From Escherichia coli (GTDB lineage Bacteria > Pseudomonadota > Gammaproteobacteria > Enterobacterales > Enterobacteriaceae): DNA of 64,000 nucleotides. A program made the position numbers and the translations under genes. Shown here one piece after another: positions 1,531 through 14,001 of the stretch (positions are counted from its first letter, which is position 1; each line of letters begins with the position of its first letter). The DNA is taken from the NCBI RefSeq assembly GCF_024700885.2, contig NZ_CP117016.1; one strand, written 5' to 3'. A model generated the notes under the pieces. It was not told the DNA's origin. It made no database searches and saw nothing but the letters and a program-made list of their open reading frames with translations.

Positions 1531-2139
1531 TCAAGCCTTTGGCGGTTCGGTGCGAGCAAAACTTTCGCGGCTAAACAGGTTTTCGACCAGTTTGACTAAG
1601 TGTGGGCGGTCGACACACCAGCCTGGCGCAACGCGGCGGAAATTGAGATATCCGACGGCACAGGCAATGGCGATAGTCGCCAGATTGACCGTATCGGTTT
1701 TGAGCGTGCCATCGACCAGATATCCTTCCAGCACATCCAGACTGCGGTTGATTTTCTCCCGCTGGCGTAACAATTCATCTTCAGACTGCTGCGCCGCCGG
1801 ACGCGCCTGTTCACGCACCGATACCAGCCCGGCATCCATAATGCCATCCGCCAGCGCCTCAATTTTGCGCACCCGCAACGACTCCAGCGGATCGCGCGGC
1901 AACATCGCCGGAGCGACATTCATTAATTCAATATATTCAGCGATGATCGGCGAATCAAACCAACATTCGCCCTCTTCGGTCACCAGCACCGGCACTTTCC
2001 CTAACGGGTTAAATTGCGCCACGCCGTTGTCCGCGTTATAGGGCAGTTCATTAATAAATTCGAAAGTTATGCCCTTTTCTAACAACAGAATAGAAAGTTT
2101 GCGTACAAACGGGCTGGTGTAGCTACCGACGAGTTTCAT
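1531..2139 (-). CDS. yibF: glutathione S-transferase-like protein
   Basis: 202-aa ORF with GST-like N-terminus ([14 protein letters not shown]); position between selA and rhsA. Confidence 0.88.
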
Positions 2140-2367
2140 GCCGAGTCCTTTGTGCGAGGAAAAATATCAGTATGGCCTGGTGATGGGAAAAAGGGCAGAA
2201 AATGTTGATGGTTTGTTACTTCCCAATAAATCACATATTTATCATGGTGATATAAATATTTTCCTAATTGTTCTTATCTGACAGATATCTCACTTAAGGC
2301 TTTCTTATAAATCTGTAGGGTTTCGCCTGTCAGCAGACAAATAACCCGATAAAACAAGGATGAGCAG

Positions 2368-5300
2368 ATGAGCGGAAAACCGGCGGCGCGTCAGGGCGAC
2401 ATGACGCAGTATGGCGGTAGCATTGTTCAGGGTTCAGCCGGGGTACGTATTGGTGCCCCCACCGGCGTGGCCTGTTCGGTGTGCCCCGGCGGGGTGACGT
2501 CCGGCCATCCGGTCAATCCGCTGCTCGGTGCGAAGGTCCTTCCCGGCGAAACCGACCTTGCCCTGCCCGGCCCGCTGCCGTTCATCCTCTCCCGCACCTA
2601 CAGCAGTTACCGGACAAAAACGCCCGCGCCGGTGGGGAGCCTCGGCCCCGGCTGGAAAATGCCCGCGGATATCCGCTTACAGCTGCGCGATAACACACTG
2701 ATACTCAGTGATAACGGCGGCAGGAGCCTGTATTTTGAGCACCTGTTTCCCGGTGAGGACGGTTACAGCCGCAGCGAGTCACTCTGGCTGGTGCGCGGCG
2801 GCGTGGCGAAACTGGATGAAGGTCACCGGCTGGCCGCACTCTGGCAGGCACTGCCGGAAGAGCTTCGCCTGAGTCCGCATCGTTATCTGGCGACGAACAG
2901 TCCGCAGGGGCCGTGGTGGGTACTCGGCTGGTGTGAGCAGGTGCCGGAGGCGGATGAGGTGCTGCCCGCGCCGCTGCCGCCGTACCGGGTACTGACCGGG
3001 CTGGTGGACCGCTTCGGGCGCACACAGACGTTTCACCGTGAGGCTGGCGGCGAAATCACCGGCGTGACGGATGGCGCAGGCCGTCACTTCCGGCTGGTAC
3101 TGACCACGCAGGCGCAGCGGGCAGAAGAAGCCCGGCAGCAGGCCATTTCCGGCGGGACGGAACCGTCCGCTTTTCCTGATACCCTGCCGGGTTACACCGA
3201 ATATGGCCGGGACAACGGCATCCGTCTGTCTGCCGTGTGGCTGACACACGACCCGGAATATCCGGACAACCTGCCAGCCGCGCCGCTGGTACGCTATGGC
3301 TGGACGCCGCGTGGCGAACTGGCGGCGGTGTATGACCGCAGCAATACACAGGTGCGCAGCTTTACTTACGATGATAAATACCGGGGCCGGATGGTGGCGC
3401 ACCGTCACACGGGCCGACCGGAAATCCGTTACCGTTACGACAGTGACGGGCGGGTGACAGAACAGCTAAACCCGGCGGGCTTAAGCTACACGTATCAGTA
3501 TGAGAAAGACCGCATCACCATCACCGACAGCCTGGACCGCCGTGAAGTCCTGCACACGCAGGGCGAAGGCGGGCTGAAGCGGGTGGTGAAAAAGGAACAC
3601 GCGGACGGCAGCGTCATGCAGAGTCAGTTTGACGCGGTGGGCAGGCTTAAGGCACAGACGGATGCCGCAGGCCGGACGACTGAGTACAGCCCGGATGTGG
3701 TGACGGGACTCATCACGCGCATCACCACACCGGATGGCAGGGCATCGGCATTTTACTATAACCACCACAACCAGTTAACGTCAGCCACCGGGACTGACGG
3801 GCTGGAGTTGCGCCGGGAATATGATGAATCCGGCCGTCTGATTCAGGAAACCGCACACAACGGCGATATCACCCGCTACCGTTATGATAATCCACACAGT
3901 GACTTACCCTGCGCAACGGAAGATGCCACCGGCAGCCGGAAAACCATGACATGGAGCCGTTACGGTCAGTTGCTGACCGTCACTGACTGTTCCGGTTATG
4001 TAACCCGTTATGACCATGACCGTTTTGGTCAGGTGACGGCGGTGCACCGCGAGGAAGGGCTGAGTCAGTACCGCGCATACGACAGCCGTGGACAGTTAAT
4101 TGCGGTGAAAGACACGCAGGGCCATGAAACGCGGTATGAATACAACGCCGCCGGTGACCTGACCGCCGTCATTGCCCCGGACGGCAGCAGAAACGGGACA
4201 CAGTACGATGCGTGGGGAAAGGCCATCCGTACCACGCAGGGCGGTCTGACGCGCAGTATGGAATACGATGCTGCCGGACGGGTCATCCGCCTGACCAGTG
4301 AAAACGGCAGCCACACCACCTTCCGTTACGATGTACTTGACCGGCTGATACAGGAAACCGGCTTTGACGGCCGCACACAGCGTTATCACCACGACCTGAC
4401 CGGCAAACTTATCCGCAGCGAGGATGAGGGGCTGGTCACCCACTGGCACTATGACGAAGCAGACCGCATCACGCACCGCACCGTGAAGGGTGAACCGGCA
4501 GAGCAGTGGCAGTATGATGAACGCGGCTGGCTGACACAAATCAGCCATCTCAGCGAAGGCCACCGGGTGACGGTGCATTACGGGTATGATGAGAAAGGCC
4601 GCCTGACCGGTGAGCGCCAGACGGTGCATCACCCGCAGACGGAAGCACTGCTCTGGCAGCATGAAACCAGACACGCTTACAACGCGCAGGGACTGGCGAA
4701 CCGCTGTATACCGGACAGCCTGCCCGCCGTGGAATGGCTGACTTACGGCAGCGGCTGGCTGGCAGGCATGAAACTCGGCGACACACCGCTGGTGGAGTAT
4801 ACCCGCGACCGCCTGCACCGGGAAACGCTGCGCAGCTTCGGCCGTTATGAACTCACCACCGCTTATACCTCTGCCGGGCAGTTACAGAGCCAGCACCTGA
4901 ACAGCCTGCAGTATGACCGCGATTACACCTGGAACGACAACGGCGAACTCATCCGCATCAGCAGCCCGCGACAGACCCGGAGTTACAGCTACAGCGACTC
5001 CGGCAGGCTGACCGGCGTCCACACCACCACCTCAAATCTGGATATCCGCATCCCGTATGCCACGGACCCGGCAGGCAACCGCCTGCCCGACCCGGAGCTG
5101 CACCCGGACATCACCCTCAGCATGTGGCCGGATAACCGTATCGCCCGTGACGCGCACTATCTTTACCGGTATGACCGTCACGGCAGACTGACGGAGAAAA
5201 CCGACCTCATCCCGGAAGGGGTTATCCGCACGGACGATGAGCGGACTCACCAGTACCATTACGACAGTCAGCACCGGCTGGTGCACTACACGCGGACACA

Positions 5301-6555
5301 ATATGCAGAGCCGCTGGTCGAAAGTCGCTATCTTTACGACCCGCTGGGCCGCAGGGTGGCAAAACGGGTATGGCGGCGTGAACGGGACCTGACGGGCTGG
5401 ATGTCGCTGTCACGGAAACCGGAAGTGACCTGGTACGGCTGGGACGGCGACCGGCTGACCACGATACAGAACGACAGAACCCGCATCCAGACGGTTTATC
5501 AGCCGGGGAGCTTCACGCCACTCATCAGAGTTGAAACCGCCACCGGTGAGCTGGCGAAAACGCAGCGCCGCAGCCTGGCGGATGCGCTTCAGCAGTCCGG
5601 CGGCGAAGACGGTGGCAGTGTGGTGTTCCCGCCGGTGCTGGTGCAGATGCTCGACCGGCTGGAAAGTGAAATCCTGGCTGACCGGGTGAGTGAGGAAAGC
5701 CGCCGCTGGCTGGCATCGTGCGGCCTGACGGTGGAGCAGATACAAAACCAGATGGACCCGGTGTACACGCCGGCGCGAAAAATCCACCTGTACCACTGCG
5801 ACCATCGCGGCCTGCCGCTGGCGCTTGTCAGCACGGAAGGGGCAACAGAATGGTGCGCAGAATACGATGAATGGGGCAACCTGCTGAATGAAGAGAACCC
5901 GCACCAGCTGCAGCAGCTCATCCGCCTGCCGGGTCAGCAGTATGATGAGGAGTCAGGCCTGTATTACAACCGCCACCGCTATTATGACCCGCTGCAGGGG
6001 CGGTATATCACTCAGGATCCGATTGGGCTGAAGGGGGGATGGAATTTTTATCAGTATCCGTTAAATCCGGTTCAGTATATAGATTCAATGGGACTGGCAT
6101 CTAAATATGGACACTTAAATAATGGCGGATATGGAGCGAGACCCAACAAACCGCCTACGCCCGATCCAAGTAAGTTGCCAGACATAGCGAAACAATTAAG
6201 ACTGCCATATCCTATTGACCAGGCCAGTAGTGCGCCTAATGTTTTCAAAACATTCTTCAGAGCATTAAGTCCTTACGATTACACACTGTATTGCAGGAAG
6301 TGGGTAAAACCCAATCTGACTTGTACGCCGCAGGATGATCCCCAGTATCCAGGGATGGAGACAAAGACAGCAAGTGATTACCTGCCACAGACAACTTGGC
6401 CAACAACTCAATTACCACCAGGATATACTTGTGCAGAACCCTATTTATTCCCAGACATTAATAAACCCGATGGGCCAGCAACAGCAGGGATAGATGATTT
6501 GGGTGAAATTTTAGCTAAAATGAAACAGAGAACATCGAGAGGAATAAGAAAATGA
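2368..6555 (+). CDS. rhsA: Rhs polymorphic toxin: PAAR-like N-terminus, YD-repeat core, variable C-terminal toxin tip
   Basis: 1395-aa ORF; N-terminal [17 protein letters not shown] (PAAR-like); many YD/RYxYD repeats; core ends with the DPIGL motif near nt 6016-6030, followed by an AT-rich ~175-codon tip of unrecognised family. Confidence 0.93.
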
Positions 6556-7121
6556 AAAGAGCTTTGTTCTTTTTGCTGATGATATTCGTTAGTTTTGGTG
6601 TTATAGCTAATTGCGAAACACAAGCTAAAGATCAAGATTGCTTTACCATTTTCACTAAGGGTACTATTTTTTCCGCGTTTCCTGTCTTAAATAATAAAAC
6701 CATGTGGAGATGGTATCAGAATGAGGACATAGGTGAGTATTATTGGCAAACAGAGCTTGGTATATGTAAAAATAACAAATTCACACCAAGCGGGGCGAGA
6801 CTCTTAATTCTCGTCGGATCACTACGCCTTAATGAAAATCATGCAACCAAAGGAACGTTGCAGGAGTTGCTAAATACAGCAGAAAAAACGGCGTTTCTCG
6901 GCGATCGGTTTAGAAGTTATATAAGAGCGGGTATCTATCAAAAAAAGAGCAGTGATCCAGCTCAGTTGTTGGCAGTCCTTGATAATTCAATCATGGTTAA
7001 ATATTTTAAAGATGAGAAGCCAACTTATGCTCGAATGACAGCACATCTCCCGAACAAAGATGAGTCTTACGAATGTTTAACAAAAGTACAGCATGAACTG
7101 CTTCGTAGTGAAGAAAAATAA
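6552..7121 (+). CDS. putative cognate Rhs immunity protein, secreted (N-terminal signal peptide)
   Basis: start codon overlaps the rhsA stop (ATGA at 6552-6555); GAGG RBS about 10 nt upstream; N-terminus [21 protein letters not shown] is signal-peptide-like; AT-rich like the rhsA tip. Confidence 0.6.
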
Positions 7122-7289
7122 AATCTCTTCCTGAGAAAATAAATTAACTATTCGAAAAAATATGTTCTTAATGGGTATCCAGGAACACCAGAAGGTCGAT
7201 TTGGAAAAATGGATTCCGATGGTAAGAATATCATATATTCTGAATGTAATGTTTTACCCACAACTTTTGAGATTCGATAGGTGTAGAGC

Positions 7290-7637
7290 ATGAGAAACTC
7301 ACTAATATTACTTATTATGATATTGTTTACAATATCACACTCAGTATTTGGAAAAGAAAATTCAGCGGAAATTTTAGTAAATAGTCGTGAAATGGCTTTG
7401 GAATTATCATATGTTTATATTAAATATATATACGGGAAAGAAAAAGCAGAATTTCAGAAACCATATAGTATTACAGATGACAATAATTGTTGGAAAATCG
7501 AGGGAAAACAACCGAAGACGTTAGGAGGAAATTTTACAATACTAATAGCGAAAAAAGATGGGCAAGCGTTGGATGTAATACACAAAATAATCCACTGTTC
7601 AGACGATTCAAATATTTTACCAAGGTGTGTTTCGTAA
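7290..7637 (+). CDS. small secreted hypothetical protein, possible orphan immunity protein
   Basis: 115-aa ORF with signal-peptide-like N-terminus MRNSLILLIMILFTISHSVFG; has a frameshifted paralog at 9240-9507; sits in the Rhs-associated AT-rich region. Confidence 0.5.
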   Translation: MRNSLILLIMILFTISHSVFGKENSAEILVNSREMALELSYVYIKYIYGKEKAEFQKPYSITDDNNCWKIEGKQPKTLGGNFTILIAKKDGQALDVIHKIIHCSDDSNILPRCVS

Positions 7638-7839
7638 CTATTTTGTGTACAATATGACTCTACATATCGACGAAAAAACCACTTGATTTGACAGGAACAC
7701 ATTCAAAAAAATTTCTTTTTCATTTCAGGAGCGATTTTCATCTGTTACTTGAAGTATCTGTGAGATTAAGTGACTCCCCCTAACGTCGTACTAAATAGTA
7801 ATTACTGGCCATACCGGGAGCAGTATTCGGCGCTTCCCA

Positions 7840-8080
7840 CATGCAGCAGAATAACCGCATCAGCGAAGATGTATTGTATTTTTACTATCACAATGTGTAC
7901 GGACGGTTTATGGAAAAGAATGAACATTAGATACGCGATGCGGCGGCAGGTTACACGGTTATCACTACGATAGCCAATACTGGCTGGTGCATTACCGCCG
8001 TGAACAATAGGACGCCGTACTGCTGGAAATTTCTTACCTTTATGACTCCCCGCGCCGCCGTATTGGGAAACGGGAAGCAA
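7840..8080 (+). pseudogene. decayed internal fragment of an Rhs core
   Basis: aligns by eye to rhsA nt ~5130-5370 (e.g. relic GYHYDSQYWLVHY and YLYDSPRRRIGKR vs rhs[14 protein letters not shown] and [13 protein letters not shown]); interrupted by stop codons; GC-rich patch inside an AT-rich region. Confidence 0.6.
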
Positions 8081-8654
8081 TCAAGATGAGGCTGATATAA
8101 TGTGCGGAATGCCTGAGTATTTTTAGAATAGGGGGGTAATATGTTTGATAGAATATATCTTGGTGATCGAGCAATAAAAAATTGAATTTGATTTATGGAG
8201 TAAACAAATTAGAATTCAGGTTAATTTAATCTCAAGGATAGCCTATGGTACAACAGAATGGAATTTTTATGATAATGAAGACTTAGAAGATGGTTATTTG
8301 GTATTTTCAGATGTTAGTTTCTTCAATATAACTCCTAATGGCTCTATTCCAGATGATTATATAATTTCAATAATTACAGATAATGTCAATGTTGAATATT
8401 TTGAATCAACTATAGTTGCTGTTGGTCAAATTCGAAACACAAATGTTGGTGACATTGATAATATTGGTGAATGTCAAATTTTCATCAGGTATAAAGACAG
8501 CTGGATTGAGAATAAACTCAAAGAAAAAATAATTGAATAACCATGTTATGTATAGACATTTTAGATGGAACGAACCAGAGGAAGGCATGCCTCCGACTTG
8601 GGTTATATGGGCACGGAGTTTTAGTGTAGTGAACTCAACGACGCAAACCGAATA

Positions 8655-8720
8655 ACCTGCCGCTGGCGCTTATCAGCACGTAAGGGACAACAGCGTAGTA
8701 CGTAGAATAATCCTACCCAC
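8655..8720 (+). pseudogene. short decayed relic of the Rhs core 3' end
   Basis: cctgccgctggcgcttatcagcacg is near-identical to rhsA 5811-5835 and to the yibJ copy at ~10669-10693; similarity decays downstream and is interrupted by stops. Confidence 0.5.
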
Positions 8721-8792
8721 GTAGTATGGACACAGGCCTAAGCGAGGTTCTGGTTTTCAAATTTTTCGGGAGTTAGATGATTGGAGGAACAG

Positions 8793-9158
8793 ATGATAAG
8801 AATCGCATTTTTAATAACCAATAAATTTCTTGAGATAGATAGTACCACTCTTGCTGGATATGATTTTAGCGGGATGAATCTACATCGTGCCACCCTCAAT
8901 GGTTATTGTCTTGATGGGGCGAAATTTGAAAAAACTCATTTAAGAAATGTAATGATTCAACATACATCAACTAGAAATGCTGTCTTTCGCAATGCGGCTC
9001 TGATGAATGCTATTCTGAATAACTCAGATTTCACTGGAAGTGATTGTAGTAATTCAAGGTCAATAGGTGAAAATTTTAAAGCAATAGATAATCATGGGAA
9101 AGATATAATAAATGGAAAAGGATTGCCTAATGTTTGCAAAATACATGACAACGTATAA
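8793..9158 (+). CDS. pentapeptide-repeat protein, hypothetical
   Basis: ORF with GGAGG RBS 5 nt upstream of ATG 8793 (the track ORF begins at an in-frame TTG at 8781); sequence shows pentapeptide-like periodicity (GMNLHRATLNGYCLDGAKFEKTHLRNV...AVFRNAALMNAILNNSDFTGSD). Confidence 0.5.
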   Translation: MIRIAFLITNKFLEIDSTTLAGYDFSGMNLHRATLNGYCLDGAKFEKTHLRNVMIQHTSTRNAVFRNAALMNAILNNSDFTGSDCSNSRSIGENFKAIDNHGKDIINGKGLPNVCKIHDNV

Positions 9159-9239
9159 GAAAATATTATTCAGAACCTATGTGATTGTATCTTTATTTTT
9201 ACATACAACACATGGGCGCAGTGTAATAATATTATTATA

Positions 9240-9507
9240 ATGCGCAAGTATGAAAGTGAGGGGAAATACACCGTTAGAAATTTGGTCAAAAATAAAGCTA
9301 TAGCATTGGAATTAGCTGAGATGTATGTTAAAAATCGTTATGGACATGATGCCGAAGAAGAAAAAAAAACCATACAAAATCATGGAATTACCAACAAGTT
9401 GGATTGTTGAAGGCACCATTGAATCAGACCAAATTGCTGGTAGGGTTTTTATTATAGAAATAGGCAAAAATGACGGGAGAATTCTAAATTTTGGCCACGG
9501 AAAATAA
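9240..9507 (+). pseudogene. frameshifted paralog of the 7290-7637 gene, interrupted in an A9 homopolymer
   Basis: frame A (9240-9410, MRKYESEGKYTVRNLVKNKAIALELAEMYVKNRYGHDAEEEKK) and frame B (9325-9507, ...PYKIMELPTSWIVEGTIESDQIAGRVFIIEIGKNDGRILNFGHGK) together align with the 7290 protein (SREMALELSYVYIKYIYGKEKAEFQKPYSITDDNNCWKIEG...ILIAKKDGQALDVIHKI); the frames meet at the A9 run 9361-9369; losing one A restores one ORF. Confidence 0.6.
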
Positions 9508-9611
9508 GTATGTAAGGATAAACAAACATCGTGTGTGCTGATGGCAGAGTAGGTGGAGGACTCCAGACAGTCAAACGATAGAAAAAGATAGTCTTTATGG
9601 AGGTTCCTGCA

Positions 9612-10454
9612 ATGTCGAATACATACCAGAAAAGAAAGGCAAGTAAAGAGTATGGTTTATACAATCAATGTAAGAAACTAAATGATGATGAATTATTTCG
9701 CTTACTTGATAATCGCAATTCATTGAAAAGGATTTCATCTGCCAGAGTATTGCAGCTAAGAGGTGGGCAAGACGCTGTTAGATTGGCAATTGAATTCTGC
9801 GCTGACAAAAATTATATCCGTAGAGATATAGGAGCATTTATACTCGGGCAAATAAAAGTTTGCAAAAAATGCGAAGATAGCGTTTTTAATATTTTAAAAA
9901 AGATGGCACTGAATGATAAAAGTGCTTGCGTTCGAGCTACAGCAATCGAGTCAACTGCTCAGCGATGCAAGAAAAACCCAATTTATTCACCTAAAATAGT
10001 AGAACAATCTCAAATTACTGCTTTTGATAAATCGGCTAATGTCAGACGTGCTACGGCATTTGCTATTTCTGTTATCAATGATAAAGAAACAATTCCACTA
10101 TTGATTAATCTGTTAAAAGATCCAAATGGAGATGTCAGAAACTGGGCCGCATTTGCAATAAATATCAATAAATATGATAATAGTGATATTAGGGATTATT
10201 TTGTGGAGATGCTTCAGGATAAAAATGAGGAAGTCCGTATTGAAGCAATAATCGGACTTTCCTACAGAAAAGATAAAAGGGTTTTATCTGTTTTATGCGA
10301 TGAGTTAAAAAAAAATACTGTTTATGATGATATCATTGAAGCTGCGGGTGAATTAGGTGATAAAACGCTACTTCCTGTTTTAGATACTATGTTGTACAAG
10401 TTTGATGACAATGAAATTATAACTTCCGTTATTGATAAGCTGAAGCGTTCATAG
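9612..10454 (+). CDS. yibA: HEAT-repeat protein
   Basis: N-terminus MSNTYQKRKASKEYGLYNQ at the internal ATG 9612 matches recalled YibA; repeated D/N-x-x-VR-x-x-A HEAT-like units; lies between Rhs modules. Confidence 0.8.
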   Translation: MSNTYQKRKASKEYGLYNQCKKLNDDELFRLLDNRNSLKRISSARVLQLRGGQDAVRLAIEFCADKNYIRRDIGAFILGQIKVCKKCEDSVFNILKKMALNDKSACVRATAIESTAQRCKKNPIYSPKIVEQSQITAFDKSANVRRATAFAISVINDKETIPLLINLLKDPNGDVRNWAAFAININKYDNSDIRDYFVEMLQDKNEEVRIEAIIGLSYRKDKRVLSVLCDELKKNTVYDDIIEAAGELGDKTLLPVLDTMLYKFDDNEIITSVIDKLKRS

Positions 10455-10495
10455 CGTGAGTTGCCTATGCACAGTGAGGTATTCCCGCCGGCACG

Positions 10496-11305
10496 GTGCA
10501 GATGCTCGACCGGCTGGAAAGTGAAATCCTGGCTGACCGGGTGAGTGAGGAAAGCCGACGCTGGCTGGCATCGTGCGGCCTGACGGTGGCGCAGATGCAA
10601 AACCAGATGGACCCGGTGTACACGCCGGCGCGAAAAATCCACCTGTACCACTGCGACCATCGCGGCCTGCCGCTGGTGCTTATCAGCACGGAAGGGGCAA
10701 CAGAATGGTGCGCAGAATACGATGAGTGGGGCAACCTGCTGAATGAAGAGAACCCGCACCAGCTGCAGGGGCGGTATATCACTCAGGATCCGATTGGACT
10801 GAAGGGGGGATGGAATTTTTATCAGTATCCGTTGAATCCGATAACTGATATTGACCCGTTGGGATTAGCGACCTGTTTATACAGCATAACTTTAGGTATG
10901 CTTTCATGCGTTTCAGATACGCCAAGTGATGATAATTCTTATGGTGTGCTTACTATTTCAGTCGCCTCTGGTAATAATGGTAATAATATGCAATGTAAAA
11001 ATAATCCTGGTTGTACACACTTACAAAATAGAGGCCCAATACCTCCAGGGGTATGGAGCTGGAATGTTAATGGTCCTGGAGCAACTAATAGAAAACCTAA
11101 TGGTATACGTTTAGTACCGTCAGCAAATACAGAAACGTATAATCGTGATGGATTTTTAACACATAGTTGTTTAAACGCTTTTGGTCCATCTTTAGGACCT
11201 CGATTCTGTTCCGAGGGTTGTATAACTGGTTCATCTAATGACATGCAAAAATTAAATGAGCTAATATTTTCAGAGCCAGATAGCACATTAACAGTGACGG
11301 ACTAG
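10496..11305 (+). CDS. yibJ: orphan Rhs C-terminal fragment (3' core plus alternative toxin tip) with L,D-transpeptidase-like motif
   Basis: nt ~10472-10840 are near-identical to the rhsA 3' core (5616-6070) including [18 protein letters not shown]; the tip then diverges; tip contains H-S-x14-S-E-G-C-I-T (His codon 11162-11164, Cys codon 11219-11221); symbol is positional only. Confidence 0.7.
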
Positions 11306-11309
11306 AAAT

Positions 11310-11705
11310 ATGGCAAGGTTATTAACAATTGTGCTTTTTTTCTCTATTTCTGCGAATGCAGTTACTGTAAACCAATTTCAGAGAGAGTTGGATTTGGCAG
11401 ACAAGGCAATATTATGGGCACTAATATCAGCCAGTACCCAAGAGGGACGAAAAGCGTGTTCACTTAGCTATTTTTCATGTAAAGCCGCAGAGGCTGAACT
11501 CGGACTGGCATATATGGCTGCTAATGATAACAAGGCATTTCTCACATCCTTATCTAGAATAATGATGTACAAAATAGATGCTGGACTTTCCGAATCCTAT
11601 ACATGCTATTTATTAAGCAAGGGAAAGATCATAAGACCATATCTGAAGAATCTAAATCCACACCAACTTGTCGCTGATTGCATTGAAACTGTAAATAAAA
11701 GATAA
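11310..11705 (+). CDS. putative immunity protein for the orphan Rhs tip, secreted
   Basis: starts 4 nt after the yibJ stop; N-terminus MARLLTIVLFFSISANA is signal-peptide-like; AT-rich. Confidence 0.55.
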   Translation: MARLLTIVLFFSISANAVTVNQFQRELDLADKAILWALISASTQEGRKACSLSYFSCKAAEAELGLAYMAANDNKAFLTSLSRIMMYKIDAGLSESYTCYLLSKGKIIRPYLKNLNPHQLVADCIETVNKR

Positions 11706-12283
11706 AAATAAAAAAATCATTGATATAGATTCAGTTAATATTTGCAATGATAATAAAAATATAAATTGGAGAGTTAATAGTACTATTGTAGCCATTGATG
11801 ATTCTATAAAATGCATCGATGAATAATAACTTAATTATATTTAAAAATATATTAATGACTCACTCTCCAGGAGTTTTTTAACTTAGTGTTATAATGAATA
11901 CGATAATTAAAAGTGAAGAGAAAAATAGTTGTATACATATATTACATGAACCTACATTGTGATCTATAAATTAAATATTTTTAAATGTGACTGTCATCCT
12001 TCAGATAATAAAGCCATCATCGCAATAGATGGAAAAGCACTCCTGCTCTTTTTTGATTAGAGCCGTGGCAGAGGAACAACTCATATCATCATTGCGATCT
12101 CGACAATGTATGGTCTGATCCTTCGGCAGATCAAGACGGATAAAAAATCCAATGAGTTCACACTCATCCCGAACTTCTTAACATAATGGATATTAACGAA
12201 AAATCATCGCAGCCAATGAAGTAATATGCAAAAATAATTAGTCCTTACAGGGAGCAAAGTTCCATAATCTCCCCCTTCCCTAC

Positions 12284-13420
12284 TCAATGATCCAAATAAA
12301 GATAATGCATCCAACTGGTCATTCTCAGCAGCACCTTCCGCATCACCGAAACATGGCTGAAATGGTCGGAGTAAACTGCCACCTGGGCGTAGATGCCGTC
12401 GGGTAAGGCATCGATATCAGCGTTAGGGTCCAGTTCAATGGTTCCCAGCACACCGTCCGTGCCGGGCACGACCGTTAATGATTGCAATACCCCCTGCGCC
12501 TGATAAGAACCGCCTGGCACGACAGGTAAAATACTGGTCAGTTTGCCGTGGAACACCTGCCCAGGTAGCGCGTTAAACACCACTTCCGCATCATCGCCGG
12601 GTTTCAGACGTAACAGCGAGTTTTGCCGAAATTGGGCGACAATTTGCCGTTTTTGCTCGGGGATGAAAACCATCACCGGACGCAACGGCAAGGCAGCTGC
12701 GTATGTACCTGGGCGGATCAGTACCTGAGTAACGTAGCCATTGCTCGGCGCGCGAATGACAGTCTGCTCAAGGTTATATTTTGCTTCAGTAAGTTGCGCT
12801 CTTAAGCTCACAATCTGCGATTGCTCGCCGTTAACCATACTATCGAGCTGGCTCTGGATCTGCGCCTGCTCCGCCACCGAGCCTTTCACCAGCGCATCCT
12901 GCGCGAGGAAATTTTGCCGCGCATCGTCGATGTCACGTTCCGAGAACGGATTCACCGCCGCCTGGCTGCCTTTCAGATAACGTTGATAATTATTAAACAG
13001 ACGGTCGCGCTCCGCTGAAACCTGGGTGGTGTTGGCCTGCGCTTCAGTGAGCTGCGCGCGCAGCGTCTTTATATTATGCGTCGCCGTCATCAGGTCAGCC
13101 TGAAGTCTGTCAACTCGCGCCTGGTAACGAACCGGGTCGAGCTTAAAAAGCACCTCGCCCTTTTGAATAAGCTGATTATTCTTGTCAGTGACTTCAGTAA
13201 CAATTCCCGTCACCTGTGGCGTGATGGGGATCGCAATCACTGCCTTTTGCGCGGTAAAAGTGTAAGGGTGGTTGTAGTTCATCAACAAAATCAAACCACT
13301 CACCAGAAACACGCCTCCCAGCGCCGCCGTCGCCAGCGTCCACTGATTTACCGGAATGCGGAAGATTTTAAAGACCGCCCACGCCAGCGCCACGTAAGTT
13401 AAAACAATCAATAGATCCAT
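12284..13420 (-). CDS. yibH: HlyD-family membrane fusion-like protein
   Basis: 378-aa ORF with N-terminal TM segment and long coiled-coil region; position upstream of mtlA. Confidence 0.8.
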
Positions 13421-13422
13421 AT

Positions 13423-13785
13423 TTAGATCTCCGGGAACGTGGAATAGTCAGTCTTTTTCTCGGCGGCGAGTTGATGCTCCAGCCGGGAAATTCGGTCAGA
13501 AAGTGCGGCGATTTCCGGGTCAGCCGCTTTCTCCTGCGACGCAACATGTGACTGCATACCCCAGCCACGCTCCGGTTGATAGAGCGTCGCCCAGATCCAC
13601 AGAAACGGCCAGATAACATGCAGAGTAAACAGGCTCACCCAGCCCGCCGTATGAATAGCGTCGGCATGGGGATGGTTGCGCTTTTTGGCAATCAGATAAG
13701 GGATGTCATGTATCGCGATGATTCCATAAAAAATCACCAGAAAGACGAAGATCAGCACTCCCAACGCGAAATAGTTTAGAAACAT
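13423..13785 (-). CDS. yibI: small inner membrane protein (DUF3302-like)
   Basis: 120-aa ORF with two hydrophobic segments; 2-nt gap downstream of it to yibH, co-oriented. Confidence 0.75.
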
Positions 13786-14001
13786 ATCTGCCTCGGATTC
13801 ACGTTTATCGGTGTTGTTTTTTGGCTGGCAGCCAGAAGGGAGTCAGGCTGATATTTTGACAATAATTCGGGTTCGCGATTCTCGCCATAACACCAAAGAA
13901 TAATTTTTAGAGGTGATGAGTTGCTTAGTTACATAACGATTTTATGACGAAGGCATAACATGCTGCAGATCACATCAGGTGAACGCCGTAAGAAAATATC
14001 T

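Follow-up and report, generated by a model that had tools for sequence, protein, structure and literature searches.

Orphan Rhs tips in the Enterobacteriaceae are created by C-terminal displacement (Jackson et al. 2009, PMC2935791), and the anatomy of the resulting Rhs and CDI orphan modules has been described (PMC2935791, PMC3150448). In the rhsA array of Escherichia coli K-12 (yibA-yibJ-yibG-yibS-yibW-yibV), displaced tips stand behind the full-length rhs, with a core fragment of variable length, a boundary, an A+T-rich tip and an immunity gene (PMC2935791). In Salmonella Typhimurium LT2, the main gene and the orphan share an uninterrupted direct repeat of 522 bp at 95% identity, and recombination between the copies produces a chimeric full-length rhs while removing the main tip together with the cognate immunity gene (Koskiniemi et al. 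2014, PMC3967940). The core region that precedes the tip is a C-terminal plug and aspartyl autoprotease, which closes the Rhs shell and sets the toxin free (PMC8636562, PMC8765631); its catalytic aspartates, in the DPxGL motifs, are 22 residues apart (D1324/D1346, PMC8765631). The Tlde1 family (PF10908), to which the tip studied here bears a weak likeness, comprises T6SS L,D-transpeptidase-like effectors with the catalytic motif HXX14-17-(S/T)HGCh (PMC9638812).

The stretch of DNA analysed here (hereafter the window) comprises 64,000 nucleotides of an E. coli genome (assembly GCF_024700885.2, contig NZ_CP117016.1) and contains the rhsA locus, the region flanked by selA-yibF on one side and yibH-mtlA on the other. 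Positions 2000-12000 are 100% identical to E. coli strain MLI114, and the gene calls were taken from the PGAP annotation of that identical record (Table 1). The core of rhsA extends to about position 6069 and is followed by a unique tip (6070-6555). The C-terminal part of the protein matches NF041261 RHS_core and TIGR03696 (positions 1-76); family searches with the current tip returned no Pfam or NCBIfam match. The family search was equally negative for the next open reading frame, which is presumed, from its position only, to encode the immunity protein for the present rhsA tip. The array of displaced pieces behind these two genes is collinear with the "RhsB tip-yhhH-yibA-orphan" arrays of the DSM 103246 type, and it is followed by the orphan module, after which PGAP places yibH on the opposite strand.

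Table 1. Features of the rhsA locus in the window, with position, strand and the evidence for each.
Feature	Position	Strand	Evidence
rhsA, full-length, 1,395 aa	2368..6555	+	ORF list; PGAP "RHS element core protein" (MLI114)
Main repeat copy, upstream block	5616..5913	+	BLAST against 10472-10768
84 bp absent from the orphan, encoding 28 residues	5914..5997	+	Alignment; end points ambiguous within the heptamer
Main repeat copy, downstream block, with both DPxGL motifs	5991..6070	+	Matches 10762-10840
189-aa ORF, presumed immunity gene of the current rhsA tip	6552..7121	+	ORF list, PGAP; overlaps the rhsA stop
Array of displaced pieces	7290..10454	+	PGAP of the identical locus, repeat search, profile search
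NTF2-fold immunity gene	7290-7637	+	PGAP
DUF6258 gene	8181-8540	+	PGAP
Core remnant, 54 nt, 85% identity, in-frame stop	8656-8709	+	Repeat search/BLAST
Two pentapeptide-repeat tip pseudogene pieces	8793-9158	+	PGAP
yhhH-like NTF2-fold immunity gene, frameshifted	9130-9507	+	PGAP
yibA, without its K-12 RhsA tip	9612-10454	+	PGAP; NF007244 match
Orphan 3' core fragment	10472..10842	+	Alignment, BLAST; Pfam RHS PF03527
"RHS domain-containing protein, frameshifted, incomplete" pseudogene	10473-10873	+	PGAP
Orphan toxin tip, weakly Tlde1-like	10843..11305	+	Pfam Tlde1_dom PF10908, E = 5e-7
"tlde1 domain-containing protein"	10898-11305	+	PGAP
Imm57 immunity gene, K-12 yibV orthologue	11310..11826	+	PGAP; alignment with the intact 10R gene
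Frameshifted Imm57 family immunity gene	11310-11826	+	PGAP

As in LT2, the main gene and the orphan are linked by a direct repeat. A preliminary description of this DNA had called the 3' core of rhsA and the orphan fragment near-identical, and the two regions do align. The repeat search, the pairwise alignment and BLAST agreed that window 10472-10842 repeats rhsA 5616-6071 in direct orientation and in the same frame, in an upstream block (10472-10768 against 5616-5913, 298 columns, 96.3% identity, E = 3e-139) and a downstream block (10758-10840 against 5987-6069, 83 nt, 96.4% identity, E = 1.8e-34). This confirmed that the repeat is real and well above chance. From 5640 onwards, the perfectly identical blocks in the upstream part measure 63, 31, 6, 79, 4, 43 and 42 nt; those of the downstream part measure 36 and 35 nt. 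The copies are spaced by 4,855 bp in the upstream block and by 4,771 bp in the downstream block. Exactly 84 bp of the rhsA sequence is missing from the orphan copy. The heptamer GCTGCAG occurs in rhsA at 5907-5913 and again at 5991-5997, 84 nt apart (AGCTGCAG stands at 5906-5913), and the orphan retains one copy, at 10762-10768. Alignment and sequence thus bear out an in-frame 84-bp loss bounded by GCTGCAG repeats, as had been proposed. The starts (5616 and 10472) and ends (6070 and 10840) given earlier for the two copies also held, but the start of the first flanking repeat, read with its leading letter, had been placed 1 nt too early, at 5905 instead of 5906.

The single-nucleotide difference described earlier near the 5' junction of the orphan proved to be a 1-nt deletion near 10490 (rhsA GGTGCTGGTGC, orphan GGCAC-GGTGC), accompanied by five substitutions within the first 25 nt; because of this deletion, the first eight or so codons of the fragment are out of frame with the rest. 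Gene conversion that would keep the orphan similar to its own rhsA was considered but left no signal: the orphan shows 6 mismatches to its own rhsA, compared with 4-5 to the orthologous orphans of other strains.

The rest of the orphan has the features of a displaced tip. In a profile search, the core fragment matched only positions 1111-1200 of the RHS_core profile, and it ends in the Rhs core/tip boundary motif (PxxxxDPxGL, motif start at 10838). Its G+C content is 60%, in surroundings of 30-43%, and falls at the core/tip boundary to 36-42% in the tip. An open frame of 269 codons runs from a GTG at 10496 to the stop at 11305, through the core and then through the unique A+T-rich tip. The Pfam match of the tip is weak and covers positions 10-105 of the PF10908 model. 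Like the Tlde1 effectors, the tip has the cysteine, in the motif H-x15-SEGCI (H-x15-S-x-G-C-I); unlike them, it reads SEGCI and not (S/T)HGCh, with a glutamate in place of the second histidine, and it is the putative toxin tip of an Rhs protein and not a stand-alone effector. Compared with the tip that the full-length Rhs carries in strains Ec73552 and 10R, it shows 3 nt differences. A dN/dS analysis of the tip had too few differences to be informative.

The immunity gene begins 4 nt past the stop codon of the tip. Its frame ends at codon 131 of 173 (ORF 11310-11705) through the loss of 5 nt from an A-rich tract near 11692, and this frameshift is present in all members seen. In the intact 173-aa orthologue, the Pfam Imm57 domain (E = 3.7e-44) spans residues 30-127, so that the domain is kept in the 131-aa product and the tail is lost. 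The truncated protein also retains an N-terminal hydrophobic leader.

No Shine-Dalgarno-like sequence was found ahead of the GTG at 10496. A promoter belonging to the orphan itself was rejected, as promoter-like sites occur only at the shuffled expectation (12 against 11.0 ± 3.3). The orphan is thus probably silent, with no start signal of its own. All together, a 3' core fragment of rhs that has neither the N-terminal part nor a start signal, the boundary motif, the A+T-rich tip, the adjoining immunity gene and the occurrence of the same tip on full-length Rhs proteins (in PE164, 2013C-4282 and Ec73552) indicate, at the level of sequence, that the feature is a Rhs orphan toxin/immunity module, a class that has long been known.

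In its general build, the array is like that of K-12, but the orphan joins two pieces that are separate there. Window 9560-10768 is collinear with K-12 yibA and the first 297 nt of the yibJ core fragment, and the yibA/core junction, including the 1-nt deletion, is identical to that of yibJ. Window 10758-14000 is collinear with K-12 yibS(3')-yibW-yibV-yibU-yibH. The tip is orthologous to yibW, which is decayed by many stop codons in K-12 and still an open frame here, and the immunity gene is orthologous to yibV. Thus, the name yibJ, used in the preliminary description, is right for the yibA/core junction, but the tip and immunity gene are those of yibW and yibV. Unlike in K-12, a yibJ-type core fragment minus 84 bp is joined directly to a yibW-type tip; the window has neither the yibJ tip nor yibG, and yibS is missing from the array. 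The 5' junction with its 1-nt deletion is common to K-12 yibJ, DSM 103246, Santai and KGu016, which shows that it is old.

The 84-bp segment that the orphan lacks encodes about positions 18-45 of TIGR03696, and its loss deprives the orphan of the conserved N-terminal half of the Rhs-associated core domain. The rhsA protein scores 84 bits against this model over positions 1-76, compared with 35 bits over positions 42-76 for the orphan, which is therefore left with an incomplete domain: a segment of the form GQxYDxExGLxYNxxRYYDP is gone. The three best solved Rhs structures, 7Q97, 8CP6 and 8H8A, match the lost segment closely, at most positions with identical or similar residues (in 7Q97 it aligns to ...RFQGQYLDRETGLHFNTFRFYDP), and Tc-toxin C subunits still match the stretch that begins with this segment. 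Like P. protegens RhsA (7Q97, PMC8765631) and P. laumondii Rhs1 (PMC8636562), both copies have the two DPxGL motifs 22 residues apart; in the orphan they read DPIGL-17 residues-DPLGL, and the second motif reads DSMGL in rhsA. Unlike P. protegens RhsA, the orphan has no counterpart of the 28 residues just upstream of these motifs. A gap that removes the catalytic aspartates was considered and rejected, as both motifs lie 3' of it. Because these motifs are retained, a loss of function in a fusion that carries the gap is something we infer by reasoning only; the loss of 28 conserved residues is probably harmful to the function of the core.

When 5,426 complete genomes were searched with a 65-nt probe across the deletion joint (E <= 1e-15), the joint was found in 35 of them, once in each and in every case within a fragment that the annotation marks as a pseudogene; no full-length rhs contained it. 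An assembly artefact was rejected as a source of the gap, given an identical joint in 35 independent complete genomes. The yibA-core-Tlde1 arrangement as such occurs in 74 genomes, about 39 of which keep the 84 bp with both heptamers, which makes the gap a derived trait of a single lineage. With this gap and a truncated immunity gene, the orphan of this lineage may be called partly decayed, although the word may overstate the case, since the 269-codon frame of the tip is open, with only 3 nt differences, and the Imm57 domain is intact.

To account for these observations, we favour the reading that C-terminal displacement at rhsA left this repeat behind as a scar, now partly decayed, from which activation would be mostly defective; we would give it a probability of about 0.75. 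The primary meaning of the repeat is thus historical. A tip that rhsA bore earlier, with a weak likeness to Tlde1, would have been pushed downstream along with its Imm57 gene as newer tip/immunity cassettes recombined into the rhs core, and the displaced tip would have carried along a 455-nt piece of core ahead of it. It is because the old tip kept this piece in front that it forms an "orphan" module. In this lineage, the module has also lost the 84 bp between the GCTGCAG heptamers (28 residues) and 5 nt of the immunity gene.

A series of arrays between yibF and yibH is consistent with this history. In PE164, 2013C-4282 and Ec73552, the locus holds only a full-length rhs with the Tlde1 tip (1,389-1,392 aa) followed by Imm57; at least four genomes with such a gene were confirmed by annotation (three intact, and PI24 frameshifted), with two more recognised from identical match geometry. 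In 10R and at least nine others, an rhs with an RhsC-type tip and ybfB precede an orphan made of a 1,048-nt repeat, the Tlde1 tip and Imm57. DSM 103246 has an rhs with the RhsB tip, yhhH, yibA and then the orphan (455 nt plus Tlde1) with Imm57; Santai has the same arrangement with a further RhsC-ybfB unit ahead, and in K-12, yibJ-yibG is inserted before the decayed yibS/yibW/yibV. Across the series, Tlde1-Imm57 is always the most distal unit, adjoining yibH, the position in which serial C-terminal displacement is expected to leave the oldest tip (PMC2935791).

The array in the window is itself a mosaic of stretches of the rhsB-locus type, the DSM type and the 10R/Ec73552 type. Positions 2367-10768 are collinear, at 97.5% identity, with an array at the rhsB locus (nikR-yhhJ) in KGu016, a type apparently present in about 230 genomes as judged from coverage counts, and this homology stops at the deletion joint. 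Positions 9072-11304 are collinear with the DSM type at 95%. The tip and Imm57 show 4 mismatches in 848 nt to the 10R/Ec73552 type, and the sequence to the right of the joint differs at 38-39 sites from the DSM and Santai orphans, though the left side is common to them. The change of affinity is placed between 10768 and 10843, at or just past the joint, a stretch of 74 nt too conserved to place it more finely. No genome was found to carry this array with the 84 bp intact.

These data raise another possible origin of the gap, which we regard as tentative: it may be the right-hand joint of the event that placed the array at rhsA, made out of register at the GCTGCAG microhomology, and not the product of later slippage. 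The partners of such a joint, proposed with no greater confidence, would be an incoming yibA-yibJ-type core fragment and a resident core linked to Tlde1. The end of the KGu016 homology at the joint, the 10R/Ec73552-like sequence beyond it with its many differences from the DSM and Santai orphans, and the failure to find this array with an unbroken core fragment all argue for this origin; yet every intact copy has the two heptamers at a spacing of 84 nt, a classic substrate for slippage, the change of affinity is resolved only to 10768-10843, and a crossover in register followed by slippage fits equally well. The fullest form of the proposal, in which the gap marks the physical joint of a whole array transplanted from the rhsB-locus type onto rhsA through a 7-bp microhomology, seems to us unlikely. 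If it were true, displacement would in some cases finish with an illegitimate join, and the core of the displaced orphan would be crippled in the same step, and a non-homologous route would be added to the published displacement model, which is purely homologous.

It is also conceivable, if rather doubtful, that the module persists solely because its immunity gene protects against neighbours that wield Rhs-Tlde1, and that the core fragment and tip hitch-hike. Strains armed with this tip do exist, the Imm57 domain and the hydrophobic leader are retained, expression of orphan immunity genes is known from comparable CDI arrays (PMC3150448), and yibA is kept here in the absence of its toxin. However, a frameshift cuts the immunity gene short in every member seen, and the open frame of the tip would be left unexplained.

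The displacement scar that we favour leaves the question of whether recombination between the copies would activate the tip in this lineage. In the preliminary description, such recombination had been called the known mechanism for activating orphan tips, and this route has indeed been published (PMC3967940). Here, the orphan would be expressed only if its core fragment and the full-length gene underwent RecA-type recombination, with deletion of the intervening 4.86 kb. The crossover is geometrically valid: the copies are direct and in frame, and the predicted product is an uninterrupted rhsA-tip frame, free of internal stops in either block. With the crossover in the upstream block, 4,855 bp would be lost and the resulting gene of 1,360 codons would carry the gap; one in the downstream block would delete 4,771 bp and leave a gene of 1,388 codons, whose last 200 residues differ from the Ec73552 protein at three positions. 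As in LT2, a chimeric full-length rhs is predicted, and the main tip and its immunity gene would be deleted.

The earlier expectation that the orphan tip would be fused onto full-length rhsA therefore stands for the reading frame, but the core would be intact only for crossovers in the last ~80 bp. Indeed, a complete Rhs-associated core domain is obtained only from crossovers within 5991-6069, which would restore an intact rhsA-Tlde1 gene, whereas crossovers in the 298-nt block give a defective core because the gap removes conserved core residues. In a rough weighting that assumes a minimal pairing length of about 25 bp for E. coli RecA recombination, about 86% of the usable homology is situated upstream of the gap, with about one seventh downstream. 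Most crossovers would thus probably fall in the 298-nt block and yield an rhsA with a damaged core, relative frequencies that we infer from this weighting. A further cost to every recombinant would be the loss of 6552-7121, the presumed source of immunity to the present rhsA toxin. This difficulty was also noted in the Salmonella study, where prior duplication of the locus was proposed as a solution (PMC3967940).

A search with the predicted fusion gave no near-identical match in a single piece, and the matches with full coverage all contain the 84 bp, at no more than 97.2% identity; no recombinant from this arrangement occurs in the 5,426 complete genomes, 35 of which carry it. Hence, the fused arrangement that the earlier description anticipated was not found for this array, but a sister array appears to show it, in Ec73552.

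The difference between Ec73552 and 10R, 6409, EC26 and 45E consists solely of a 1,867-bp segment, which Ec73552 lacks. The flanks of Ec73552 match the 10R type with 0 mismatches in 3,584 + 6,402 nt (9,986 nt). In the 10R array, the repeat shared by main gene and orphan is 1,048 nt long at 98.6% identity; of its 15 diagnostic sites, the first six are main-like in Ec73552 and the remaining nine orphan-like, and the single switch falls within an identical block of 676 nt. The product is a full-length rhs-Tlde1 with an intact Imm57, and the RhsC-type tip and ybfB are gone. At least ten 10R-type genomes were among the listed matches to the predicted fusion, four of them with flanks identical to Ec73552; with one fused genome against these, deletion is the simpler direction. 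From these sequences, Ec73552 is likely a main/orphan recombinant of a 10R-type array, although an insertion in the reverse direction or a collapse of the repeat in the assembly may also account for it. The recombination mechanism thus appears to operate at the rhsA locus with the Tlde1-like tip.

In view of this example, one might suppose that the orphan in the window is a working stand-by weapon and that in this lineage, too, recombination of the copies is in actual use to replace the rhsA tip by the Tlde1-like one. The repeat is direct, in frame and above the minimal homology for RecA recombination, the tip frame is intact and the Imm57 domain kept, the tip is found on full-length Rhs at this locus in other strains, Ec73552 is consistent with a recombinant of a sister array, and there is the Salmonella precedent of 522 bp at 95% (PMC3967940). 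We nevertheless consider this improbable. Unlike the LT2 repeat, the repeat here is split into 298 + 83 nt by a gap that damages the core; its longest perfect block is 79 nt, compared with 676 nt in the 10R array. Most of the usable homology, under the assumed ~25-bp pairing, would give a core that lacks 28 conserved residues, the recombinant would lose the resident immunity gene, and the arrangement has 0 recombinants in 5,426 complete genomes, the nearest natural example being Ec73552 against the 10R type with its 1,048-nt repeat.

Finally, it is very improbable that the orphan tip is translated alone from the GTG at 10496 to form a toxin-antitoxin pair with Imm57, as reported for Salmonella orphan rhs: the frame 10496-11305 is open, and toxin-antitoxin-like behaviour of rhs elements is reported for an orphan-carrying Salmonella strain (PMC7043789), but the frame has no Shine-Dalgarno-like sequence upstream and no excess of promoter-like sites, and Tlde1-type toxins target periplasmic peptidoglycan (PMC9638812) whereas this fragment has no export signal.

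The repeat is thus an ordinary, partly decayed displacement scar of an already known kind. It is of little importance beyond annotation, but it illustrates how Rhs toxin repertoires are built and lost, and the locus offers a well-resolved natural series of arrays together with one likely natural recombinant, Ec73552. It also indicates that an orphan that seems activatable can be disabled by a small in-frame deletion, and counts of orphan tips as a reserve arsenal should therefore verify that the core fragment is intact.

The rhs locus of Ec73552 (L010) looks like a natural recombinant between the main and orphan copies of a 10R-type array, in which an rhs gene with an RhsC-type tip and ybfB are followed by an orphan Tlde1-Imm57 unit. 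The Ec73552 array agrees with the 10R-type arrays of 10R (L002) and of 6409, EC26 and 45E (L011, L012, L014) except that 1,867 bp are absent, and the flanking sequence is identical. Ec73552 carries a full-length rhs-Tlde1 gene, both ybfB and the tip of RhsC type are gone, and the single crossover falls inside a 676-nt identical block. A separate 10R-type array, that of WL297 (L013, ~4214-4637), has a main rhs gene without its N-terminal ~2 kb, so that both rhs copies in this strain are fragments.

The Tlde1-like tip and Imm57 gene of the window are nearly identical to those of 10R (4 mismatches in 848 nt; window 10843-13420 compared with L002), whereas the adjoining yibH shows the greatest divergence from 10R (44 mismatches in 1,137 nt). 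This contrast points to a recombination breakpoint between about 11700 and 12284 in the window. The unit is also found in PE164 (L003), where the rhs-Tlde1 gene is full-length and intact; in its Imm57 gene (L003 8441-8961), 1 nt is deleted near codon 9, and the resulting early frameshift would cost the protein its N-terminal leader. In PI24 (L009), the rhs gene is frameshifted, as is Imm57.

In the window, the second DPxGL motif of the full-length rhsA reads DSMGL (region 6040-6555). Neither the 161-aa rhsA tip nor the product of the 189-aa ORF 3' of the gene (6552-7121) matched an entry in Pfam or NCBIfam. Further along, G+C rises locally to 44-45% between A+T-rich immunity genes (7750-8200), and BLAST found no rhs core similarity in this interval. 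The decayed pieces that follow (see table) make up one further orphan, heavily decayed, which is collinear with the "RhsB tip-yhhH" segment in arrays of the DSM 103246 type. Next to them, yibA (9612-10454) is intact. In K-12 this gene is the neighbour of the RhsA tip; that tip is absent from the window, apart from ~30 nt of its 3' end left upstream of yibA, which makes yibA here an orphan immunity-type gene that lacks its toxin.

Decayed pieces within the array of the window
Feature	Coordinates	Remarks
Core remnant, 54 nt	8656-8709	85%, in-frame stop
Pentapeptide-repeat tip pseudogene pieces, then frameshifted yhhH-like NTF2 immunity gene	8793-9507	

The whole rhs gene and the array up to the deletion joint (window 2367-10768) are collinear, at 97.5%, with KGu016 (L007 1856-10264), where the array sits at the rhsB locus, between nikR and yhhJ. 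Directly 3' of that array, KGu016 carries an insertion of ISEcp1 with blaCTX-M-24 and IS fragments (L007 11516-15343), and thus a chromosomal resistance gene adjoining an Rhs array. The rhsB-locus position is apparently shared by ~230 genomes, and the array is at rhsA in the 35-genome lineage only, a distribution which implies that the complete array moved between rhs loci.
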